Positions 528-60,198 of a stretch of DNA of 64,000 nucleotides are shown here, piece after piece. Within the stretch, counting starts at the first letter, position 1, and each line of letters starts with the position of its first letter. Position numbers and translations under genes: made by a program. The DNA lies in assembly GCA_040285745.1 (NCBI GenBank), contig JAUFOR010000002.1:496001-560000 (forward strand), read 5' to 3'. Origin of the DNA: Barthelona sp. PCE (Eukaryota). The notes under the pieces are model-generated. The model ran no database searches, was not told the origin of the DNA, and saw only the letters and a program-made list of their open reading frames with translations.

Positions 528-2033
528 CTATGATTTGCGACGACGAGTGCTCGGTGGACGTCTCTTTTTCTTTGAATTCTTTGCACTAACTGTTTTTGGC
601 ACAGGTGTATCACTTTTACGTGCTTCAGCGGCTTGTTTCTCCAACCTTTTAATATTTGTTGTATCAATATTGCAACCAAACGTGCTATGGAACAAAGGCA
701 ACGGGTCAACTGATATGGGGTCGTGCCCATGAAGTGAAGCGAATACTTCTGGCTGAACATCTTCTCCGTCGCACACAAGATCGAATGAACCAACTTGTCT
801 TAACGCTGGGTCGTGTCGCAGTGGATGTCTCCTTGTCTTAAGCATGGACGGGAGATACAAGCGTCGTTCCATATCGACTACACTAAGCATGTCATGCAAT
901 AAGCGCATTTTCATTTCTTTATCTGATTGTGTTTCAGCACTCAGTGAAGGCGACGCATTGACTTCAATGAGCCAGGGGTTCATATCACCGTCAATAAGAA
1001 TATCGTAACCATATAACTCAAAACAATGTGGATCGTGGATAACAGAGTTTTGTACTGATTTTAGTGACAAAAGAACAAGTTGCTGCATTTGAGCGAATAA
1101 AATGTCAGTCTCTTCGATGCTATGTTTTGCATTTAAATATCTTCTTAATGAATCAAGTCCCCATTTCGCACCAATACTTTCATCGTAATTTGATGATCCT
1201 TTTTGAAGTGATACATTCGTTAAATGAACATACGCGTTGTCAATGTCGTCCATAGAGTATGGTGTGAAACTGAAACGAGCAAAACCTTCACGATATATAT
1301 ATACAACAAGTGGCCGATAAGAAACAACAAGAACATACAACCTCAAATCAAATTTTTTGCCGCCTACAAGATAGGGGTGGTCAAGGTACATCTGTACAAC
1401 ATAGTTCTCAACACGATGCTCTTCTGTACTTTGACTTTTCCACTGCTCAATGTCTCTAAGTTTCTCAAATAAAAATATACCTTTACCCTGTGCCCTGCCA
1501 ATGGGTTTCATGATCCACACACCCCCTGGCGTCCGCTTAAATTCCTCAACAAACAAAGAGTAATCAGCAGGCAAAACATATGTGGAAGGAAAGAATGTGG
1601 GCATTACAATACCGTTCTTTCGCAATGTACGTCTGTATTTCTTCAGATTCTTTGCGAGTAAATCCTTACGAGTAAGTTCAAAGCTACGCTTGAAATGATT
1701 CAGTTTACGATATCCAATAAGTGGTGTAGATTCGTAATTCTCTCGCATCCACTCGATATTGGCCCATATGATATCCCAGTCATCCTCTTCAACCTCAACA
1801 AATCCACGTTCTTTAAATGTGTTCAGAATTAGTGATCGAATGCAGGTTTTGAATTTGATTCTCTCAGAAGGAACTGGTGTGCTTCCACTGCTTGAATTGT
1901 TTGTCGACCCGCTGTACCTTCGTCGAGTGCTACTGATACGTGTATCGCGAGTACTGGAAGAAGAATTCATGCGGTTCCTTGATGGATCAGATTTTGGTCG
2001 CGCCCTTGACCCCTTTCGCCCGACTGATGACAT
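528..2033 (-). CDS. TTLL9: Tubulin polyglutamylase, TTLL9-like
   Basis: TTL motifs ELTRKDLLAKNLKKY, WIMKPIGRAQGKGIFLF, KKFDLRLYVLV, HLTNVSLQK, FELYGYDILID, WLIEVNASPSL. Confidence 0.9.
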   Translation of the reverse strand: MSSVGRKGSRARPKSDPSRNRMNSSSSTRDTRISSTRRRYSGSTNNSSSGSTPVPSERIKFKTCIRSLILNTFKERGFVEVEEDDWDIIWANIEWMRENYESTPLIGYRKLNHFKRSFELTRKDLLAKNLKKYRRTLRKNGIVMPTFFPSTYVLPADYSLFVEEFKRTPGGVWIMKPIGRAQGKGIFLFEKLRDIEQWKSQSTEEHRVENYVVQMYLDHPYLVGGKKFDLRLYVLVVSYRPLVVYIYREGFARFSFTPYSMDDIDNAYVHLTNVSLQKGSSNYDESIGAKWGLDSLRRYLNAKHSIEETDILFAQMQQLVLLSLKSVQNSVIHDPHCFELYGYDILIDGDMNPWLIEVNASPSLSAETQSDKEMKMRLLHDMLSVVDMERRLYLPSMLKTRRHPLRHDPALRQVGSFDLVCDGEDVQPEVFASLHGHDPISVDPLPLFHSTFGCNIDTTNIKRLEKQAAEARKSDTPVPKTVSAKNSKKKRRPPSTRRRKS

Positions 2034-2160
2034 CTGATGCTTGAAAAAGTATATAAAGGGAAAACAAGTCAGTTTTGTTAACTAGCACCATTTGTTGGTT
2101 TCTAAGTTTTTCTTTGGATAAAAGTTTGCAAACTGAAAAGTAAACGCCTTGTGAAACATA

Positions 2161-2258
2161 CAGAAATACTTTTATGAAAAGTTGATGCAGATAAAAAATT
2201 TTCCATAAGTTCAAATATTATTGTGGGACTTTACTGGTTGAAAATGTGCAAATATCCC
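2161..2258 (-). other. Conserved two-hairpin non-coding element, copy A
   Basis: Shares CAGAAATACT, GCAGA-AAAA-TTT, TTTACT-GGTTG and TGTGCAAATATC (+ strand) with 3393-3500. Stems pair fully only on the minus strand via G-U pairs. Confidence 0.6.
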
Positions 2259-2297
2259 TATGTTATCATACATTAAAATGATTTGTTACATAACTAT

Positions 2298-3293
2298 TTA
2301 TTGGTGAAGATCGTTGAAGGCGGGCCACAATTCCTCAACAATAGCCTTGTTCATAGCAGTACGGATGTTGGAGAGCTCCTCCTCAGTCCAAGTCTCCATA
2401 TCACGACGAAGGAAAGTGGTATAATCCTCACGATTATCGAAACGACCAACAGGTAGGTAGAATTCTTGACCGTGGCTCTTTACCACAACTGTGTGAGGCT
2501 TATCGCTCTTCTCGAGCATATACTCAATATCATCTTGACCATAATCGTTGTACATAACAAACTCTGGAACACCATGGTTAAGAATGGAACCTGGGTTGTT
2601 GGGATCAGCACGGGCACGGTTCTTGGCACGGGACTGCTCAGGAGTAACCCAGATGTAAAGTACACCAGCATTCTGAAGAATTTCAGGAGCAAGACGACCG
2701 AAAGAGTACTCATAACCAAAGTGGTTAGTGAGGGGAAGATCCATATCGACGGGACCACCACGGGCGAATTCGATGACAACGGTTTTACCTTCAAGAGTAT
2801 CAGGAATGTTGCTAAGAAGATCATCATAAGCTTGCTTGGCTTCTTCCTCAACCTTCTCAACAAGGTGAGCTTTAATCTTGTCTGACAGACCAATGAAGAA
2901 AGGCTCCATACCGACACGAACACGGGCGGCATCGAATCTAGCCATAAGCCAGTTAGTGTAACAAGACTGAGTTTCAGCAGGCTTGCACTCAGGGCGAGTG
3001 AGGTTGGCGTAATCTTCGTTAAGAAGTTCGACAAGGAAACCCCAAATTCTGGAATCGTTAGCACTTTTGTCAGCACTCTCGAAGAAGAGGCGGTCTTCTT
3101 CAATTTCCTCCAAAGCATCATCGATGACACGGGAAAGGTGAACATAAGGGTAATCATCCAACTGAACGGTGGTTCCAAAGTGGAAAAAATCACGACAAAC
3201 TTCTTCTTCGCGAGTATCGAGATAACGACGAGCTTCAGACTTACCAGATGCAGGAAGTGCGCATAAAATGATTGTGGGAATGACCTTTGACAT
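2298..3293 (-). CDS. Uncharacterised P-loop NTPase/kinase-like protein
   Basis: 331-aa ORF. N-terminal hydrophobic strand plus Walker A-like LCALPASGKSE. Walker B-like VVIEFARGG. Strongly biased codon use. Confidence 0.75.
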   Translation of the reverse strand: MSKVIPTIILCALPASGKSEARRYLDTREEEVCRDFFHFGTTVQLDDYPYVHLSRVIDDALEEIEEDRLFFESADKSANDSRIWGFLVELLNEDYANLTRPECKPAETQSCYTNWLMARFDAARVRVGMEPFFIGLSDKIKAHLVEKVEEEAKQAYDDLLSNIPDTLEGKTVVIEFARGGPVDMDLPLTNHFGYEYSFGRLAPEILQNAGVLYIWVTPEQSRAKNRARADPNNPGSILNHGVPEFVMYNDYGQDDIEYMLEKSDKPHTVVVKSHGQEFYLPVGRFDNREDYTTFLRRDMETWTEEELSNIRTAMNKAIVEELWPAFNDLHQ

Positions 3294-3392
3294 TGAAAGA
3301 TGGATTAAATGATAGTTATAGGATGATGTTATTTTATTTACAGTATTTGATTCGATTGACGAAATTTAAACGTGTTTAAAAGTGCAGTTATC

Positions 3393-3500
3393 CAGAAATA
3401 CTAAGGTTTAAATAAAGCAGAGAAAATTTTTCTTGAATAATACTCATAGCGATTTTACATAGAAGCTATATGTTTACTATGGTTGTATTGTGCAAATATC
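3393..3500 (-). other. Conserved two-hairpin non-coding element, copy B
   Basis: Same ordered blocks as 2161-2258, with an extra small hairpin (ATAGC/GCTAT) in the linker. Confidence 0.6.
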
Positions 3501-3519
3501 TCAGTAAGTGGGGTGAAAA

Positions 3520-6500
3520 TTACAAGTACATATTGTGCGTAGTGTTTCTGCGAGAGAAATCACTGTTCCACTGGCGCAGTTCTTCCAAAAGTTGCGAATT
3601 CTGAGTTACAGACGCCACTATGCTTTTTTTAGCGATCATAAAGTGTTCAACGGTAACTTCAACCATGTTCTCAGCTTCATCGTCATCTTCCGCCACTCTT
3701 AACCCCTTATTCTTTTGACTCTCAATCATATGCAACGACTGTTCCCACTGATGTTCACCTGAGAAATGTTGTACTTCTTCTTTAATGCGTTGTTTAACAG
3801 GAATAATCAATGCCTCATTTGTTAATGAAGCAAGATCACTTCCAGAATACCCTTCAGTCTTTTTTGCAATCTCATCAAATGGAAAGTTATCTGTAACCTT
3901 GTCTTTGAGCAATACTTTCAAAATAAGTTCACGTTCACGTTCATTAGGTAAATCAATTAAAACCCTGTACGGCATGCGTCGAAGAACCGCCTCATCCAAG
4001 TCCATCGGTCGATTAGTAGTTCCTAATACAAGTACTGAACCTTTGTTGGTGTTCAGACCATCCCAATGTTGCATAAATTCGTTCTTGAGCTTCCTGGCCG
4101 AAGCACCTTCGGTTGAAGCTGAAGAATTGCGTTTGCGTAATATTGCATCCATCTCATCAACAAAAATGATTGAAGGAGCCATTTTCCTTGCAACAGTGAA
4201 TAAAGCGCGAACCATTTTCTCAGTATCTCCATGCCACTTCGATGTAACATATGAAGGAGTCACATTGATAAACGTTACTCCACAAGTTTTTGCAAGTGCC
4301 TTTGCTAGCAAAGTTTTACCAGTGCCAGGTGGACCATAAAACAACACACCTGATGTTGGTTCAATGTTTTTAAACCACTGAGGATGGTAAAATGGCATGA
4401 TGATGTGTGTAAGAAGGTAGTCCTTCACGGAGTCAAGTGCACCAATTTTTCGGAAGTCAGTTTTGATGTCTTCGCTTTTCACAATACATTGACCTATTTC
4501 CTCCTCGTATTCGTTCATAAAGATGGAAGATGTTTCCCTTTCCAAGACTTCAGATTCGGAATGACGTTTGAAAACATTGAAAAAAACATTTTCCAAATTC
4601 ACTTCCTTTTCCTGCAAGTTTTGAATCAGGATGAAGCTAAGCAACTGCTTTATATCATGTAATTGTAACACATGAGTCTCTAAATAGGAATATATTGAAT
4701 CAACAGCGAGAATATCGCTGATAAGATTGAATGGTACTTCTTTATCGCTCTTAAGTAATGAGTTTAACACATACCTCATCATACGATCATTTTGTTTGAT
4801 ATTTTTGCGATAAAAACTCTTACGTAATGATAGCATCCATTTTTTGAAGTTAACAGTATCAGTTTCATCAGGACCTGAAACAACAATCTCTTGTAAAAAA
4901 ATATTTTTTAATGATCGATGTTTGGAGGCAAATAACTGGTTATTATGTCGATCACTTACATTTTTGGCTGTATTCTTCATTAAAGGCAATAAATCTGCCA
5001 AATATGTTCCCTTTATAGGAGTTCTTTGAAGATGTACACCACCTTTAACGCCACCTTTAGTGGGAAAAGCTGAAGTTATATCGTTTTGAATGCTAGTTTG
5101 TGCAGTTTTAAACAAAGTACAGAACCAAATCACGTTATAATCACTATAGTCAGATTTGAACTTGCGAAACATTGATCTATACATCTTCTTAATAAAGAAC
5201 CGATCACCATTTGCAAAAAAAACAATTTTCTTCTTATCTTTTTTCTTATTATTCTTTTCAATAAACCACCCTATCTTTTGTAACTCCTTTCTGAAACTCT
5301 CATCACCCTTTGCAGAACTGTCTAATAATAGAATGTGAATTGGAAGAAAAACATATTGTGCTTTAGCAGCATTGAAGAGTTCCACTAATGCAATATGAGG
5401 ATTGTCCTCAAACAACCCACGCACAACACCTATATACTCATTCCAACGCACAAATGTACCAACTTCAATGAAAGGGTGTGGAAATGGTAACTTCTCCTCA
5501 ACACAAATTACTTCATTGCGCTTGATCCACGGTCGTCCAACGTCAGCTCCATCACTGCCCAATTTTCTTAAAACTTTAGTAATTCGCGAATACAACTCTG
5601 TAGTATTCAGTAAGCTGAAATTATTCTCAAATATTCGAGGAACACGGAAACCATCTCCAAACATAACATAACTTTCATTTGTGTTTGATCTTAATAAGTT
5701 TTGGGAGATAAGGTACTCAACTCCTGATGAAAATGAAGGTTTCTTTTCAATTCTTTCAATTGCAAACTTATTTTTCTCAATGATAATCAGTTCAGCATCG
5801 TGACTCTTAGCAAAACTCTTTGTCAGACTCAAACAGTAATCAGAGGCAGTATGATCAGCAATATAAAGTGCACTGTTAGGCACATTATCCATCATATCAT
5901 GCAGAGCAGAATTTTCACTAACTTGGAAATTGGATGAAACGCAAGATAATGCCATTTGGATTACAGGTAACACATATAAATCAGATTTTTCAAGTGTTTT
6001 GATCCCTTCACTTTCATAATCTTTAATTGAGTAAGAATCAACTTTTGACTCATCAAAATCGTTGAATGCGTCTAGGTCTACATTAAAAACACTTAAAAAC
6101 TCACAAACATGCATTTTTGAAAGTACTTCATGATTAATATCAGTAAAATACCTTTGTTTTTCCTCATTAAATGGAAAATACCATGCGAACTTTGAATATC
6201 CCTCAAACGCTAAAGAGTCTCCAAGGTACAATTCCACATTTCTTCCTTCTAACATTTTTATATCAATGAGTTGACCATTGACGCGGATATTACGTGCATT
6301 TCTAATGGATTTGGCTGATTTTGAAAGAGAAATAGAAAGAATGGTGCCATCCAGCGAAGGTAGAACTGTGTAATTGCATAAATCGCTACAAAACTTTTCG
6401 AAAAAGTCGGAAAGTAATGAATTTGAGTTACTAAAATGCGTGCTGCAGATTGTAATCAAAGTTTGATCCACTTCAAATGCTTTATATCCAACAAATATCA

Positions 6501-6666
6501 CACCTTCAAAAAGAAAATCTACAAAAGCTCCAAATATTTTAATTCTACTAGCTTCTGCATTAGAATTAGTTCTCTGCAACTTGAGTTCGGGCTCTGAAGA
6601 AATAGGAGTAGTTGATTTGTCAAGTGTGTGCTTATGACCCATAAATGATTCATATTCAAACTGCAT
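3520..6666 (-). CDS. AAA+ ATPase, MSP1/ATAD1-spastin clade, long form
   Basis: GVLFYGPPGTGKTLLAKALA, SKWHGDTEK, IIFVDEMD, KNEFMQHWDGL, TTNRPMDLDEAVLRR. C-terminal ELRQWN. Confidence 0.9.
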   Translation of the reverse strand: MQFEYESFMGHKHTLDKSTTPISSEPELKLQRTNSNAEASRIKIFGAFVDFLFEGVIFVGYKAFEVDQTLITICSTHFSNSNSLLSDFFEKFCSDLCNYTVLPSLDGTILSISLSKSAKSIRNARNIRVNGQLIDIKMLEGRNVELYLGDSLAFEGYSKFAWYFPFNEEKQRYFTDINHEVLSKMHVCEFLSVFNVDLDAFNDFDESKVDSYSIKDYESEGIKTLEKSDLYVLPVIQMALSCVSSNFQVSENSALHDMMDNVPNSALYIADHTASDYCLSLTKSFAKSHDAELIIIEKNKFAIERIEKKPSFSSGVEYLISQNLLRSNTNESYVMFGDGFRVPRIFENNFSLLNTTELYSRITKVLRKLGSDGADVGRPWIKRNEVICVEEKLPFPHPFIEVGTFVRWNEYIGVVRGLFEDNPHIALVELFNAAKAQYVFLPIHILLLDSSAKGDESFRKELQKIGWFIEKNNKKKDKKKIVFFANGDRFFIKKMYRSMFRKFKSDYSDYNVIWFCTLFKTAQTSIQNDITSAFPTKGGVKGGVHLQRTPIKGTYLADLLPLMKNTAKNVSDRHNNQLFASKHRSLKNIFLQEIVVSGPDETDTVNFKKWMLSLRKSFYRKNIKQNDRMMRYVLNSLLKSDKEVPFNLISDILAVDSIYSYLETHVLQLHDIKQLLSFILIQNLQEKEVNLENVFFNVFKRHSESEVLERETSSIFMNEYEEEIGQCIVKSEDIKTDFRKIGALDSVKDYLLTHIIMPFYHPQWFKNIEPTSGVLFYGPPGTGKTLLAKALAKTCGVTFINVTPSYVTSKWHGDTEKMVRALFTVARKMAPSIIFVDEMDAILRKRNSSASTEGASARKLKNEFMQHWDGLNTNKGSVLVLGTTNRPMDLDEAVLRRMPYRVLIDLPNERERELILKVLLKDKVTDNFPFDEIAKKTEGYSGSDLASLTNEALIIPVKQRIKEEVQHFSGEHQWEQSLHMIESQKNKGLRVAEDDDEAENMVEVTVEHFMIAKKSIVASVTQNSQLLEELRQWNSDFSRRNTTHNMYL

Positions 6667-6784: not shown

Positions 6785-7588
6785 ATGGGCCTTCGAGCCG
6801 TTGTATTTTTCGGACTGCTGAATGTTGCGCTGTGTGATGACCGTGTTGAATTTAATTCATTTGCATCATGGTCACTAGCTGGGTTAATTTTTGCATGTAT
6901 TCTTGTTTGGAGATCTAATTATTTACGATATATCCACTTTTTGAACAATTACATACCCCTTCCCTCATCAAATTACCTTGTTTGTTTATTTTTTGTTGCT
7001 TTTGCTTTTGAGAATATTGTTATTGTAGTTTTTCATATGGGTGTACCAGACGATCACAATCTGCTGTCAATGACATATGTAATTGCTTTTCATTCTCAAG
7101 GTTGTTTTATTTTGATATGGTTTACACGAATAGCTGTTGCTAAAACAATGTTTGATGAAAATAATGAACTGTTATTAATTGTTTATAACGTATTTTCACC
7201 TCTTAAATCCTATTTAATAACGTTTTATTGGTCTTTATATGGGATTTCTATTGTTTCAGCTGTTGTTCAAATGACTCAATTTAATAATAATATTCTTGTT
7301 AATGTTGTATTGATATTTATTCGATTTTTAATCTTTATCACATCTTGTTTCTTCTTAAAAAAGCCTAAGGCAATCATTTTAAGTGTATTGTTTGCCTTTT
7401 CTTCATGGCCTATTGCAATTATTTATGAATATTTTTCACATACCACGTTATATATGATATTAAAGTTCATAGTTGCGTATGTGATGTATACATATGCAAA
7501 GGATGTGTACAAAGAATATGTTGATGATATACATTCACGAACAGTTGATATCGATAGAAGTATTAATGCTCCATTAACTTTTGCATAA
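6785..7588 (+). CDS. Multi-pass membrane protein with signal peptide, unknown function
   Basis: 267-aa ORF, N-terminal hydrophobic signal and about 7 hydrophobic segments. Confidence 0.65.
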   Translation: MGLRAVVFFGLLNVALCDDRVEFNSFASWSLAGLIFACILVWRSNYLRYIHFLNNYIPLPSSNYLVCLFFVAFAFENIVIVVFHMGVPDDHNLLSMTYVIAFHSQGCFILIWFTRIAVAKTMFDENNELLLIVYNVFSPLKSYLITFYWSLYGISIVSAVVQMTQFNNNILVNVVLIFIRFLIFITSCFFLKKPKAIILSVLFAFSSWPIAIIYEYFSHTTLYMILKFIVAYVMYTYAKDVYKEYVDDIHSRTVDIDRSINAPLTFA

Positions 7589-20765: not shown

Positions 20766-21851
20766 ATGCAGGGGGTGTCTACAAAGTGTAAATCCATTGT
20801 TTTAATGGTTTCTATTGTGCTAGCATTGGTTTTTTTTTTCCCATGGAACTCAATTCTTGATCACTTTAATCCATACCCTTCAGTTAACACAGTCCCACTA
20901 AATAACAGAACAATTGACAGTAGATTTGGTAAAAACCAATATTCTAGAAGTATGGTGAATAGAATGACTGAACACGTTGATTTTCTGGTAAATTTAAGTC
21001 AAAATGACACTGAGATTGTAGAATGTTCCAAGAAGTTCGCGTATGTGACTCTTATAACAGCAGATCGATATATTTTACCTCTTAAAGTATTAAAATATAG
21101 TATCGACAGAACAAATTCCACGGGTGAATATGTGGTTATGACATTTGAGGATTCGCTTTCAGAAGAAGGTGCATCTTCACTAAGGGAAGCTGGATTTATT
21201 ATTAAAATAGTAGAAATGATTCAAGGTCCGCAAAATTTACTCTCAAGTAATAGATTTGATGTAGTTTGGTCCAATCTACAGGCGTTTACTCTGGAGGAGT
21301 ACGATCGTATCCTTCAGCTTGATGTTGATATGATAGTAACAAAAAGTTTAAATGATTCTTGTATTCTCAATGGTATTTGGCAAGAAAGGGATACATTTAA
21401 AGATTTTGAAAGAGGTAATGGAGGTTTATGGTCATTTGAACCGGATAGACATTTCTTAAAAGCAATGTTGAAACAAATCAATGATTTTGCAACTTATCCT
21501 TCGCATTATAATTTGCTTTGGAAGCTGCAAAATTATCAAATGTTCGGATTGGAAACTACAGTGAATTTTTATGGTTATCATTATGGAATCGGTCAATGGC
21601 ATATGGTGAATGATATTTATTCAACAGGTATAATTCCGCAGCATATTCACGCAATACATTACTTTTCTGGATTATTAGAATCATCAAAACCATGGCAAAC
21701 ATTACCTGAAACTAAATTAGAACTTGAAGAAATGTTTGAAACAGTGAAACAACAAGAAGGTATGCAATCAATAGATAATATATGGATAAAGATTGCAGCC
21801 GAGTATTATTCCAAACATCCTTCACATTGGGATATACATTACCCTTCATAG
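20766..21851 (+). CDS. Glycosyltransferase family 8-like type II membrane protein
   Basis: N-terminal TM, FAYVTLIT, EYDRILQLDVDMIV (DxD), HYF...KPW. Confidence 0.8.
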   Translation: MQGVSTKCKSIVLMVSIVLALVFFFPWNSILDHFNPYPSVNTVPLNNRTIDSRFGKNQYSRSMVNRMTEHVDFLVNLSQNDTEIVECSKKFAYVTLITADRYILPLKVLKYSIDRTNSTGEYVVMTFEDSLSEEGASSLREAGFIIKIVEMIQGPQNLLSSNRFDVVWSNLQAFTLEEYDRILQLDVDMIVTKSLNDSCILNGIWQERDTFKDFERGNGGLWSFEPDRHFLKAMLKQINDFATYPSHYNLLWKLQNYQMFGLETTVNFYGYHYGIGQWHMVNDIYSTGIIPQHIHAIHYFSGLLESSKPWQTLPETKLELEEMFETVKQQEGMQSIDNIWIKIAAEYYSKHPSHWDIHYPS

Positions 21852-24343: not shown

Positions 24344-24652
24344 ATGGTTAAGTTTACAGTTCCCGATGAATTTCTTCACAGATTAAAGAATGAACGATTA
24401 CCGGTTTACGTTTGTTTAAAATGGGGCCAGAAGTACATTGGTTTTTTGAATTCATTTGATTCAAGGATTAACATTGAATTGGGGGAAGTTTATGAGTTTA
24501 ATGAAACATCAGAAGACTCAGCAACTTTCGAAGACGATCAGAAACTGGAAAAACTAATAATACGGTGCAACAATATTCTGACTATCTCTGACATTAACAG
24601 TATTAATCCTGAGAAGAATGATTTGATTAGACAGTGGCGTGCCTGCCAATAA
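24344..24652 (+). CDS. SNRPF: Small nuclear ribonucleoprotein F (Sm fold)
   Basis: P..FL..L...PVYVCLKWGQKYIGFL.SFD..IN and LIIRCNNILTI match SmF Sm1/Sm2 motifs. Confidence 0.8.
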   Translation: MVKFTVPDEFLHRLKNERLPVYVCLKWGQKYIGFLNSFDSRINIELGEVYEFNETSEDSATFEDDQKLEKLIIRCNNILTISDINSINPEKNDLIRQWRACQ

Positions 24653-24996: not shown

Positions 24997-25446
24997 ATGT
25001 TCATTACCGTGTTCCTGGGCCTCATTCAAATCATAGCTTCAGCTGCGGTATTTTTCGGACCATTGGTCATCCTCATAAGCCTTTATGATTGGAGCAGTGG
25101 TTCCATCTCAAATATGTCAATACTAAGGAGGAAAAAACAAGCTACAAAGATCGAACTATATTGCATTTATGCTTCGCTCATTCTTTCAATACTTAGCTGT
25201 TCTCTATTAGCTATTTTCTTCTCATTATGCATAGTATCATACCATTACATTACACATAAGCGCATGAGACATGTCTTCAATGGTTTAGATATTGGAACAA
25301 ATCATCAAAAACTTACTCAATACTACATTTACACACTCCTAATCAATTTGATTTACTTTATAATTACAGTTTTAATCACAATTCGCAGAATTACAACTGC
25401 GATATCCTTGCGTAACATGAAACAATACATGAACATAAGAATTTAA
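24997..25446 (+). CDS. Small membrane protein, unknown function
   Basis: 149-aa ATG-initiated ORF with three hydrophobic segments. Confidence 0.55.
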   Translation: MFITVFLGLIQIIASAAVFFGPLVILISLYDWSSGSISNMSILRRKKQATKIELYCIYASLILSILSCSLLAIFFSLCIVSYHYITHKRMRHVFNGLDIGTNHQKLTQYYIYTLLINLIYFIITVLITIRRITTAISLRNMKQYMNIRI

Positions 25447-41630: not shown

Positions 41631-41634
41631 TGGA

Positions 41635-42290
41635 TTAACAACCACAACCACCATCAACATTAATATTTGATCCTCCAGTAATATCAAAACCATCATCATC
41701 AACATCATCATCCATGGGATTAGCAATTCGTTGTTTGAGAATAGACTCTGCTAAACTGGTGAAAGCAAGGTCTACATTCTCTGCAGTCTTAGCTGAAGTT
41801 TCCAAAAACATCATTTGATGTTGTTTAGCAAAGGCTTCGGCCTCTTCTGAAGGAACACAATATTCACTTTCTAAATCAATCTTATTACCAACAAGGAGCA
41901 GTAAAACATCATCAGCAGCGTGTTTCTTAATCTCATTCAACCAAAACTTAACATTTTCAAAAGTTTCACGATTTGATGTATCATAGATGACAACAATACC
42001 ATTAGAACCGTTATAATATGATGTAGAAATCGATCTGTAACGGTCCTGGCCTGCGGTATCCCAAATTTGTAAACATATAACAAGATTTTCCAATTCGATC
42101 ATTCTAATCTTGAAATCGACACCAATAGTACAAACAAAGCGTTCTGTGAAGATGTTGTCACTGAATCTATTGAGCAAACATGATTTACCTGAAAGTGAGC
42201 AAATGACCCATAAAAAACATATTTTTAAAACATACCAACAGCAGAATCACCTACCAACATGAGCTTAAATAAATAGTCGTGGTCACTCAT
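41635..42290 (-). CDS. Rab1-like small GTPase. Exons 42290-42236 and 42188-41635.
   Basis: Spliced N-terminus MSDHDYLFKLMLVGDSAVGKSCLL, TIGVDFK, WDTAGQ, GNKID, ETSAK, C-terminal CGC. Confidence 0.92.
42189..42235 (-). other. Spliceosomal intron, 47 nt (Rab)
   Basis: GTATGT...GCTCACTTTCAG. Removal restores the P-loop GDSAVGKS. Confidence 0.92.
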
Positions 42291-42392
42291 TAAAAAAAAT
42301 ACTTAGAAAAGGGAGAAAGAAAAGTAGCAAGTTCTTAGTAACTCGATTTCACCCCATTTCACCTTTTTGTTTGAGATTGTTGTTATACACCA

Positions 42393-46117: not shown

Positions 46118-46404
46118 CATGATTTTTCTTTTATGTGATGCTTTTTTATGAAGAAAACTGTTTTAGCTCAAATTTTAGGTTTTTTAATTTTAATTGTTTT
46201 ACTATGTATCAATGTTTGACTCAGAATTTCCTTTTTCTGAGTTTGATTCATTTTTGCTTGATAGATAAATTGGTTCAGATAATAAACTGCTTGTTAAGTT
46301 AAGTAATTCGTTTTGCAAATCATACCCATCTCACAAATATTTAACCTGATACTGAGGTTAAAATTCCATATAGAAGCACTGATTTCTATAATTTTTTTGC
46401 GATT

Positions 46405-58712: not shown

Positions 58713-58732
58713 GTTCATCAATTCTTTTTGCC

Positions 58733-58931
58733 TTTACCTGTTGGATTTATTGACGTCATGGATCGATCACTTGCGAAAGATCACCATCTCTCGTGTTGTG
58801 TTCCGTCCAGGAATTGGCTCAACACCTTTTTTTTTGACAGGAACAGGTGAGATAAAGAATATCGTGCCGGTGGAACACTACTCACATTCAAAAAGTATGT
58901 TTTGTTCCACTCAGTTGCTTTACCACCACAA
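58733..58931 (+). ncRNA. Candidate structured non-coding RNA, family unassigned
   Basis: Stems TTTACCTGTT/AACAGGTGAG, GTGTTG/CAACAC, TTCC/GGAA, a GCGA-capped hairpin and GGTGGAACA/TGTTCCACT in a spacer with no convincing ORF. Confidence 0.45.
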
Positions 58932-59037
58932 GATGAAGTATGAATCCTTACGCGTACATGCCAGAGAAAAATAAATCAAAATCGATAAGTGCTATTTATT
59001 TATACTGAGTATGCTCAGGATGTTCAGGACACTCACA

Positions 59038-59392
59038 TTATGACAGTAACATGTTGTTCAAAGGGATGCTCACCAATTTTAAAGCATATCCAACAGTTCC
59101 CAGCAATACGACTCCGATTCCTGCTGATCTGGCTATTTTGGAGTATTCTAGGTGTCAGTAAACTATAATTAATACGGAAAATAATGAAACAGCAAAAAGA
59201 TATTCTTTCTTCATCTTAAAACATCATTGTGTACATTTCCATCGTAATAAACAACATACCTTTGTTATCGGGCTTTGTGCAACGACGGACAAGCATGGTA
59301 CATCTTTTGACGTACTTCTTGACAGCATTGTCATTACGAGCCTTTCCCTTGCTGGAGGCCTCTTCTTTGGGAGATTCTGCACGCTTGGACAT
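59038..59392 (-). CDS. SEC61G: Protein translocon subunit Sec61 gamma. Exons 59392-59260 and 59147-59038.
   Basis: Spliced product ...LVRRCTKPDNKEYSKIARSAGIGVVLLGTVGYALKLVSIPLNNMLLS* matches SecE/Sec61-gamma. Confidence 0.92.
59148..59259 (-). other. Spliceosomal intron, 112 nt (Sec61 gamma)
   Basis: GTATGT...TACTGACACCTAG. Removal restores KPDNKEY. Confidence 0.92.
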
Positions 59393-59705
59393 CTTTAGCA
59401 AACAATAGAAAAGGTTAGAAAAGTGAATTGAGCTAATCCTATTTGCAATATGCTAAATTCTTTATAATATCAGTCAAAAGGCTTTTGTATGACATGATTA
59501 TAGAAACTTAATGCATTTAATTTCTATAAAAATATATTCAAATTAGCCTGCTCAAAAATCAATTCCGCTTCAAACAGTATTCTGTATTTCCCTAAAATTT
59601 AACCCTCAAAAATGTTTTTCAATGTTTTTTGACTTAGGATCTCACACTAGATAGTTCTTACTCTTAAACAACTAAAACTCTGAATATTTCTTTTGTTTTA
59701 CATTC

Positions 59706-59716
59706 TTTCACCTTTA
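59706..59716 (+). promoter_or_regulatory. Putative core promoter motif TTTCACCTTT (representative copy)
   Basis: The same motif recurs shortly upstream of several ATGs in the correct orientation. Confidence 0.55.
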
Positions 59717-59721
59717 TATTA

Positions 59722-60198
59722 ATGGTTGTTTTAAGTGTTTGCTTAAAGGGCGAGTTTGAAAACATTGATTCTGTCAGTGTTAATTCACAAATATGCTGCA
59801 ACACTCGCTGTCAGTGTGGTGCTGTCAGACAGAACGTTTGGATTAATGCAAATGAAGAAGTAGATGTGCCTAATAGCCGTGGAAAGGCTAATATAGTAAT
59901 CAAATGCACCGCATGTGAGAGACGATCAACTATTTCCAATTTAACATTCATCAAGGGCATGTACAAGTCTTCTGAGGGTCACGTGCATATCATTGCAACA
60001 GCAGAGTGTCGTTCATGCACCATTGATTCTTTTAGTTTGGATGATACTCCTTTTTCATTTCACTTTGAGGAAAGGGAGATTGAAATGGACAATGATGATG
60101 GTTGTTTCTTTGGTTTTGATGACGTCACGGGTAATCCCACATCAGTTACTGAAACATCTGTTGTTATTGAGACATTCCGCGAACGAAATTTATTGTAA
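59722..60198 (+). CDS. CZIB: CXXC-motif zinc-binding protein (DUF866, C1orf123)
   Basis: LKGEFENI, CQCG, EEVDVPNSRGKANIVIKCTACER, AECR. Confidence 0.85.
   Translation: MVVLSVCLKGEFENIDSVSVNSQICCNTRCQCGAVRQNVWINANEEVDVPNSRGKANIVIKCTACERRSTISNLTFIKGMYKSSEGHVHIIATAECRSCTIDSFSLDDTPFSFHFEEREIEMDNDDGCFFGFDDVTGNPTSVTETSVVIETFRERNLL

Follow-up and report, generated by a model that had tools for sequence, protein, structure and literature searches.

In Giardia, the polyadenylation (poly(A)) signals of messenger RNAs (mRNAs) are AGUGAA-like (AGUGAA/GUGAAC), several of them with UAAA, and lie close to the stop codon (PMC3610916). Non-coding RNAs (ncRNAs) of Giardia are reported to carry a 12-nt 3'-end processing motif, [T/A/C]C[C/A]TT[T/C][A/T/C][C/T/A]T[C/T/A]AA (PMC3510501). 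Here we analysed a stretch of 64,000 nt from Barthelona sp. PCE (contig JAUFOR010000002.1, positions 496,001 to 560,000 of the forward strand; called the window below), in which two intergenic spacers, one on either side of a P-loop kinase-like gene, share a signal resembling the poly(A) type and two short sequence anchors. An initial annotation had taken these two copies, A and B, for a structured non-coding element of about 100 nt with four shared blocks. We propose instead, tentatively and from comparison of the sequences, that the two copies may be the decayed remains of a direct repeat that placed an mRNA 3'-end region on both sides of a compact gene cassette; chance comes close to it in probability.

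The shared signal resembles those of Giardia, as described in the report cited above, in that the genome is very compact and a hexamer of the G-U-A/G-A-A type follows the stop codon at a short distance. It also resembles them, and UAAA-type signals, in its enrichment past stop codons, with [ATG]GTAAA found no more than 83 nt past the stop codon of 14 of 36 open reading frames (ORFs) in the sense direction against 4 of 36 in the antisense direction, and in the presence of AGTAAA in block 3 of both copies. Unlike them, this putative signal belongs to another organism, and its commonest form after stop codons here is GTAAA(T/C); a hexamer of this type accounts for only about 6 nt of the shared sequence.

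The arrangement of the copies recalls the repeats of insertions and segmental duplications (a long duplication of the target, or a cassette integrated by a single crossover), in that two repeats of the same orientation bracket a complete single-gene unit. Unlike such direct repeats, these would have decayed to two anchors, and their statistical support is marginal. The likeness to an H/ACA box small nucleolar RNA (snoRNA) is that copy A can be drawn as a hairpin, ACAATA and a second hairpin; copy B, unlike such an RNA, has neither the hinge box nor the architecture, and pseudouridylation pockets are lacking. Measured from block 1, the last block on the gene strand, and not from the end of an RNA, the nearest ACA is 9 nt (A) and 18 nt (B) away; in an H/ACA snoRNA it stands 3 nt from the 3' end. 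As for the ncRNA motif of Giardia, TTTACT, present on the plus strand in A and B alike, is similar to the core of TCCTTTACTCAA; in the form in which the motif is given there, both copies fail at the conserved C of position 2 and at the terminal AA (A, GACTTTACTGGT; B, ATGTTTACTATG).

Two spacers share colinear blocks past their stop codons

The window is very compact eukaryotic DNA in which we called 36 ORF-genes of at least 90 aa, and most intergenic gaps are 1-100 nt long. Its 21 spacers of at least 60 nt were compared pairwise (n=420). Spacer A (2034-2297, 264 nt) runs from the stop codon of the P-loop gene to the ATG of a tubulin-tyrosine-ligase (TTL) family gene, and spacer B (3294-3519, 226 nt) from the stop codon of an AAA ATPase gene to the P-loop ATG; all three genes lie on the minus strand. 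The parts of the two copies are as follows.

2245-2256, minus strand: block 4 of copy A (GATATTTGCACA on the gene strand), an exact 12-mer, 42 nt past the P-loop stop codon in the probable 3' untranslated region (UTR)
3489-3500, minus strand: block 4 of copy B, an exact 12-mer, 19 nt past the AAA stop codon
2230-2240, minus strand: block 3 of copy A (CAACCAGTAAA on the gene strand), with AGTAAA at 2235-2230, +62 from the P-loop stop codon
3473-3485, minus strand: block 3 of copy B (CAACCATAGTAAA on the gene strand), with AGTAAA at 3478-3473, +41 from the AAA stop codon
2161-2170, minus strand: block 1 of copy A, which reads AGTATTTCTG on the gene strand, 127 nt before the TTL ATG; the final G of the block opens GTATGT
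3393-3402, minus strand: block 1 of copy B, 99 nt before the ATG of the P-loop gene
2171-2229, no strand: middle of copy A, with block 2 and 'hairpin 2' of the initial annotation; not detectably similar to the middle of copy B
3403-3472, no strand: middle of copy B
2111-2160, minus strand: flank beyond the element as first annotated, weakly similar to 3343-3392 (shared CGTTTA..TTTC)

The 12-mer of block 4 (TGTGCAAATATC) has exactly two exact copies in the window, at 2245 and 3489, and so has the 10-mer of block 1 (CAGAAATACT), at 2161 and 3393. The pattern of block 3, TTTACT-N0-3-GGTTG, is likewise present twice, at 2230 and 3473, where 0.16 occurrences are expected and none of 100 shuffles reaches two. 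All four blocks are exact and lie in the places and the order first reported, colinear and in the same orientation in both spacers. On the gene strand, copy A begins 39 nt past the P-loop stop codon and copy B 19 nt past the AAA stop codon. The similarity is limited to the 10-mer and a block of 27/29 nt; the match continues beyond the 12-mer, with 24 identities over 29 columns of the alignment.

In both copies the AGTAAA of block 3 is the first poly(A)-signal-like hexamer past the stop codon, and it is likely to act as the poly(A) signal; block 4 lies just upstream of it, in what is probably the 3' UTR. The proposal that the copies are 3'-UTR elements is supported to this extent and only in part.

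The similarity of the two spacers compared with chance

Plain MAFFT alignments of the spacers misplace the blocks, and block-anchored alignments were used in their stead. When the two spacers are shuffled as a pair, two colinear exact matches of at least 10 nt arise in 34 of 20,000 trials, and composition-aware local alignment scores as high in 4, 5 and 0 of 1000 shuffles (z 3.1-4.8). Unweighted exact-match chains fail to set the pair apart from shuffles (94/2000 at k=6 and 376/2000 at k=7).

Among the real spacers, A and B form the sole pair with two long colinear matches (1 of the 420 comparisons), and by an information-weighted chain they rank first, with 54.2 bits against 47.7, 46.9 and 46.0. 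The two are neighbours in direct orientation, one of 11 such neighbour pairs by hand count. That the exact colinear anchors are confined to spacers A and B in the window speaks for a direct repeat. The flank 2111-2160 is weakly similar to 3343-3392 by its global score, which is matched by 101 of 3000 shuffles and by 122-136 of 3000 natural pieces (p ~0.03-0.045); the local score of the same flank is not significant.

A profile built from both copies (nhmmer) finds no third copy in the window, its next match (E 1.8) falling inside a coding region. A metagenome scan with the pattern of blocks 4 and 3 returned five loci, three of which are identical in sequence; because all of their flanks are unrelated, we read them as chance matches. 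We put the probability that the similarity between A and B has an origin other than chance at a little over one half.

The copies have no RNA fold in common

According to the initial annotation, both copies fold alike on the minus strand, as two hairpins. This holds for copy A, which folds as drawn with a minimum free energy (MFE) of -14.6 kcal/mol (z -1.71; 7 of 200 shuffles fold as well), and fails for copy B, whose MFE of -9.9 kcal/mol (z +0.29; matched by 110 of 200 shuffles) belongs to a different architecture. Forced into the two hairpins, copy B reaches only -4.1 against -9.9 kcal/mol, i.e. 5.8 kcal/mol worse. Both plus strands give a positive z.

Structural alignment, proposed at the outset as a check on the fold, recovers none that is shared: RNAalifold on MAFFT alignments gives no pairs on the minus strand and -2.15 kcal/mol on the plus strand. 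The block-anchored alignment yields a single consensus element, in which the two terminal blocks pair weakly (-1.4 kcal/mol); as isolated duplexes these blocks pair over 7 bp, at -4.4 and -5.4 kcal/mol in the two copies. Sliding 100-nt windows over spacers A and B have z from -1.69 to +2.12, inside the spread of 118 spacer windows (mean -0.12, sd 1.22). Two strongly negative windows elsewhere (58813-58912 and 46168-46267) drop to -1.4 and -0.5 when 141-nt stretches are scored against dinucleotide shuffles.

Comparison with Rfam 15, another check proposed, identifies no family for the element. At gathering thresholds it has no match in the window, and at E up to 10 over 1950-3650 it yields only two noise matches, both beyond the element and scoring 15.6 and 14.7 bits where the thresholds are 80 and 75; no transfer RNA is present. 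The ACAATA of copy A, first described as H-box-like, does stand in the hinge, directly after hairpin 1; in the stretch scanned for copy B, no ANANNA is found from hairpin 1 up to position 86. The box C motif RTGATGA occurs on neither strand of either spacer; the relaxed form TGATG is found once, on the plus strand of copy A only, with CTGA upstream of it.

Nothing shows that the spacers encode a folded RNA. A pair of paralogous small structured ncRNAs on the minus strand, H/ACA-like, the first option of the initial annotation, is quite improbable: the two hairpins of copy A, the 7-bp pairing of the terminal blocks in both copies and a promoter-like TTTTCACCCC before copy B fit it, but copy B does not fold that way, no consensus fold or remarkable z accompanies the pair, hinge box and ACA spacing are inconsistent, box C/D elements are missing, and a poly(A)-like signal sits within 'hairpin 1'. 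We also give little credence to the possibility that the terminal blocks were kept by selection through their mutual pairing (7-8 bp with G-U, on the minus strand only), closing a variable loop of ~100 nt; this would be a lineage-specific RNA, or a 3'-UTR or terminator structure, on either side of a highly expressed gene, with more copies elsewhere in the genome.

A decayed direct repeat as a possible origin

Because nothing shows a folded RNA in the spacers, what they hold is probably a faded local duplication or a chance likeness. If the copies are a decayed direct repeat, each would open in the 3' end-formation region of the upstream gene, with block 4 in the 3' UTR and block 3 supplying the first AGTAAA, and would close ~60-70 nt further on with the 10-mer of block 1, before the promoter of the next gene. 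The anchors would be the remnant of one spacer segment of ~125-150 nt (2133-2258 and 3352-3502), which would have become a direct repeat when the P-loop cassette (58 nt, the coding sequence and 39 nt) landed between the AAA and TTL genes. All DNA between the anchors would have decayed since, and the element would work as DNA and as mRNA-end signals, not as folded RNA. The unique unit between the repeats (2259-3351, 1,093 nt) comprises the P-loop gene with 58 nt before it and 39 nt after it. As a gene unit it is both complete and minimal, and its size is usual here, where other same-strand neighbours lie 10-85 nt apart.

Several results weigh against such a repeat, and most of them count in favour of chance, namely two long AT-rich spacers that happen to share a 10-mer and a 12-mer, with a generic poly(A)-like GTAAA beside the 12-mer making the match seem longer. 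The sequence between the blocks diverges, as had been noted from the start: for the middles (2171-2229 and 3403-3472, 59-70 nt), 2012 of 3000 shuffles score at least as well and 1105-1137 of 3000 natural spacer pieces score as well, and block 2 (GCAGA-N-AAAA-TTT), found at its place, is at chance level like the rest of this stretch. Since the middles keep no residual similarity, a duplication has to be old, and exact 10- and 12-mers surviving from an old duplication need selection or luck. By gapped score A-B comes second of 420, with 63.0 against 68.0 and 62.8 for unrelated natural spacer pairs, and within the window blastn gives its pieces E values of 0.48-2.3, with equal or better matches in unrelated coding DNA. 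Shuffling the whole set of 21 spacers produces at least one pair with two colinear exact matches of 10 nt or longer in 120 of 400 trials, and a two-anchor pair with a summed length of at least 22 in 30 of 400. The comparison with shuffled spacers, proposed together with the annotation, is marginal overall: matches as good are rare in shuffles of this pair alone, and less so when every spacer in the window is shuffled. There is no third copy, the pair was picked post hoc from the whole window, and the poly(A) role of AGTAAA is based on the enrichment among the 36 ORFs only. Against chance stand the facts that the best of 420 pairs is also a neighbouring one in the same orientation with its blocks at matching places past the stop codons, that the 12-mer grows well beyond its own length, and that an independent flank is weakly similar.

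Two further explanations account for the same blocks by function or by mobility. The copies could be a selected bipartite cis-element, blocks 4 and 3 forming a 3'-UTR/poly(A) module, and block 1 serving either as a terminator or insulator downstream of it or as a site that activates the next promoter from upstream. The blocky pattern of exact anchors around a randomised middle, the matching positions relative to the stop codons and the location around the ORF whose codon bias exceeds that of all others in the window would suit this; with two instances only, neither anchor in the other 19 spacers of at least 60 nt, and general enrichment shown for the GTAAA part alone, we regard it as unlikely. 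Two old copies of a small non-autonomous mobile element, resembling a miniature inverted-repeat transposable element (MITE), would match the unit size of ~100-150 nt and the imperfectly inverted ends (6 of 8 bases as DNA), but there are no target-site duplications (the flanks ACATA/TATGT of A and GTTATC/AGTAAG of B are not direct repeats), the interiors are unrelated and no further copy exists in the 64 kb, which leaves this origin highly improbable.

Both spacers are otherwise ordinary intergenic DNA of a compact, intron-poor eukaryote. Stop-to-stop frames across the two give nothing credible as hidden coding sequence, and over 'hairpin 2' the short frames of copies A and B do not share a register. 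The GTATGT that abuts block 1 of copy A (2161-2156, minus strand) was considered as the start of an intron and rejected: no CT(C/G)AC-N4-AG lies at a usable distance, a possible 29-nt intron yields only a 31-aa frame, and copy B has no such site.

The P-loop gene and its neighbours

The three genes around the copies are the following.

528-2033, minus strand: TTL family gene, downstream of copy A (Pfam TTL, E 2.9e-80)
2298-3293, minus strand: 331-aa P-loop kinase-like gene, between the two copies
3520-6666, minus strand: AAA ATPase gene, upstream of copy B (Pfam AAA, E 5.5e-37)

The P-loop gene had been called an orphan. This is incorrect, as its protein has 2,896 homologues at E <=0.001 among 4,079 candidates; identity is 47-56% among the 120 matches listed, the closest of which is at 56%. 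Among the named sources are Myxococcota and Polyangia metagenome-assembled genomes (MAGs), Paratrimastix pyriformis and three 'Eukaryota sp.' isolates; the label of one of these isolates, TZLM1-RC, also occurs in a paper on Skoliomonas. The protein has no sequence match in Pfam, NCBIfam or the PDB. Its AlphaFold (AF2) model has a mean predicted local distance difference test (pLDDT) score of 93.8, and the closest PDB matches of the model are thymidylate, dephospho-CoA and deoxycytidine kinases, all weak (E from 3e-4, template modelling (TM) score 0.23-0.32). The family appears as a widespread, uncharacterised one, present in Myxococcota MAGs and several metamonad-type eukaryotes.

Among the 36 ORFs, the P-loop gene has the highest GC (0.46), the highest GC at third codon positions (GC3, 0.425) and the lowest A at these positions (A3, 0.12). 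Because of this codon usage it looks like a well-expressed resident gene and not a recent arrival. The earlier idea that a duplicated module gave an acquired gene its promoter retains its first half, in that direct repeats around a complete small gene cassette fit a duplication; against its second half stand the promoter-proximal 58 nt, which lie outside the repeat, the native codon usage and the many homologues of the gene.

3'-end and promoter signals of the window

GTAAA is found in 12 of the 36 downstream flanks, where 2.8 are expected (p 1.1e-5), and often stands right at the stop codon. Blocks 1 and 4 are members of no general signal detectable among the aligned gene flanks. Upstream of ATGs, CCTTT occurs in 14 of 36 cases against 2.6 expected, and the class CCTTT / CACCTTT / CTTTATA is enriched. 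The CACCTTT/CCTTTATA type is a candidate promoter-like motif of this genome. Two sequences of promoter-like character lie close to the copies.

2049-2064, minus strand: promoter-like TTTTCCCTTTATATAC, a motif of this class that lies beyond the repeat, 15-30 nt before the TTL ATG
3510-3519, minus strand: the TTTTCACCCC mentioned above, directly past the AAA stop codon and similar to the promoter-like motif that precedes gene 42393; before copy B only

TTTCACCCCA is seen both right after the AAA stop codon (3510-3519) and in the promoter-like region upstream of gene 42393 (region 42340-42360). At the former place it might serve as a second start site, giving the P-loop gene a long 5' UTR.

Other genes and introns in the window

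Pfam identifies, among others, NOG1, the TTL family protein, the AAA ATPase and a HYDIN/CFAP65-like protein in the window. Convergent genes overlap by 13-15 nt or sit 1-6 nt apart (7574-7588, 21839-21851, 15424 and 41631-41634), and the 3' ends of such genes must therefore lie inside the neighbouring gene.

Three small ORFs on the plus strand that have long flanking spacers are real genes: 24344-24652, with an LSM domain (E 4e-13), 24997-25446, with a weak Cornichon match (E 3e-4) below the cut-off, and 59722-60198, which encodes a CXXC zinc-binding protein (E 1.4e-17).

The introns of the window follow the form GTATGT...CT(C/G)AC-N4-AG. One of them, together with a first exon, had gone unannotated in a Ras-family GTPase gene (41638-42290, minus strand). 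The ORF as called covers only positions 41-161 of the 162-position Pfam Ras profile; the P-loop of this protein is recovered once an upstream mini-exon, whose ATG is at 42290, is joined to the ORF across a 47-nt intron (42235-42189, GTATGT...CTCAC-N4-AG). A probable small gene of two exons lies on the minus strand at 59038-59392, within the 1009-nt 'spacer' 58713-59721. It consists of exon 1 (59392-59260), a 112-nt intron (59259-59148, GTATGT...CTGAC-N4-AG) and exon 2 (59147-59038), the latter with a weak SecE/Sec61-gamma match in Pfam (E 0.16, below the cut-off). The product of this gene may be similar to Sec61-gamma.

Implications

What has been found, an mRNA-end signal and two short anchors common to two spacers, is of little consequence by itself. 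The first reading of the locus is corrected on two points: the P-loop gene is no orphan, and the copies do not fold alike as RNA. Should the repeat prove to be an insertion scar, it would document in a small way the movement of a gene cassette within a very compact protist genome. The GTAAA-type poly(A)-like signal, the promoter-like motif and the intron form found along the way are useful for annotating this genome.

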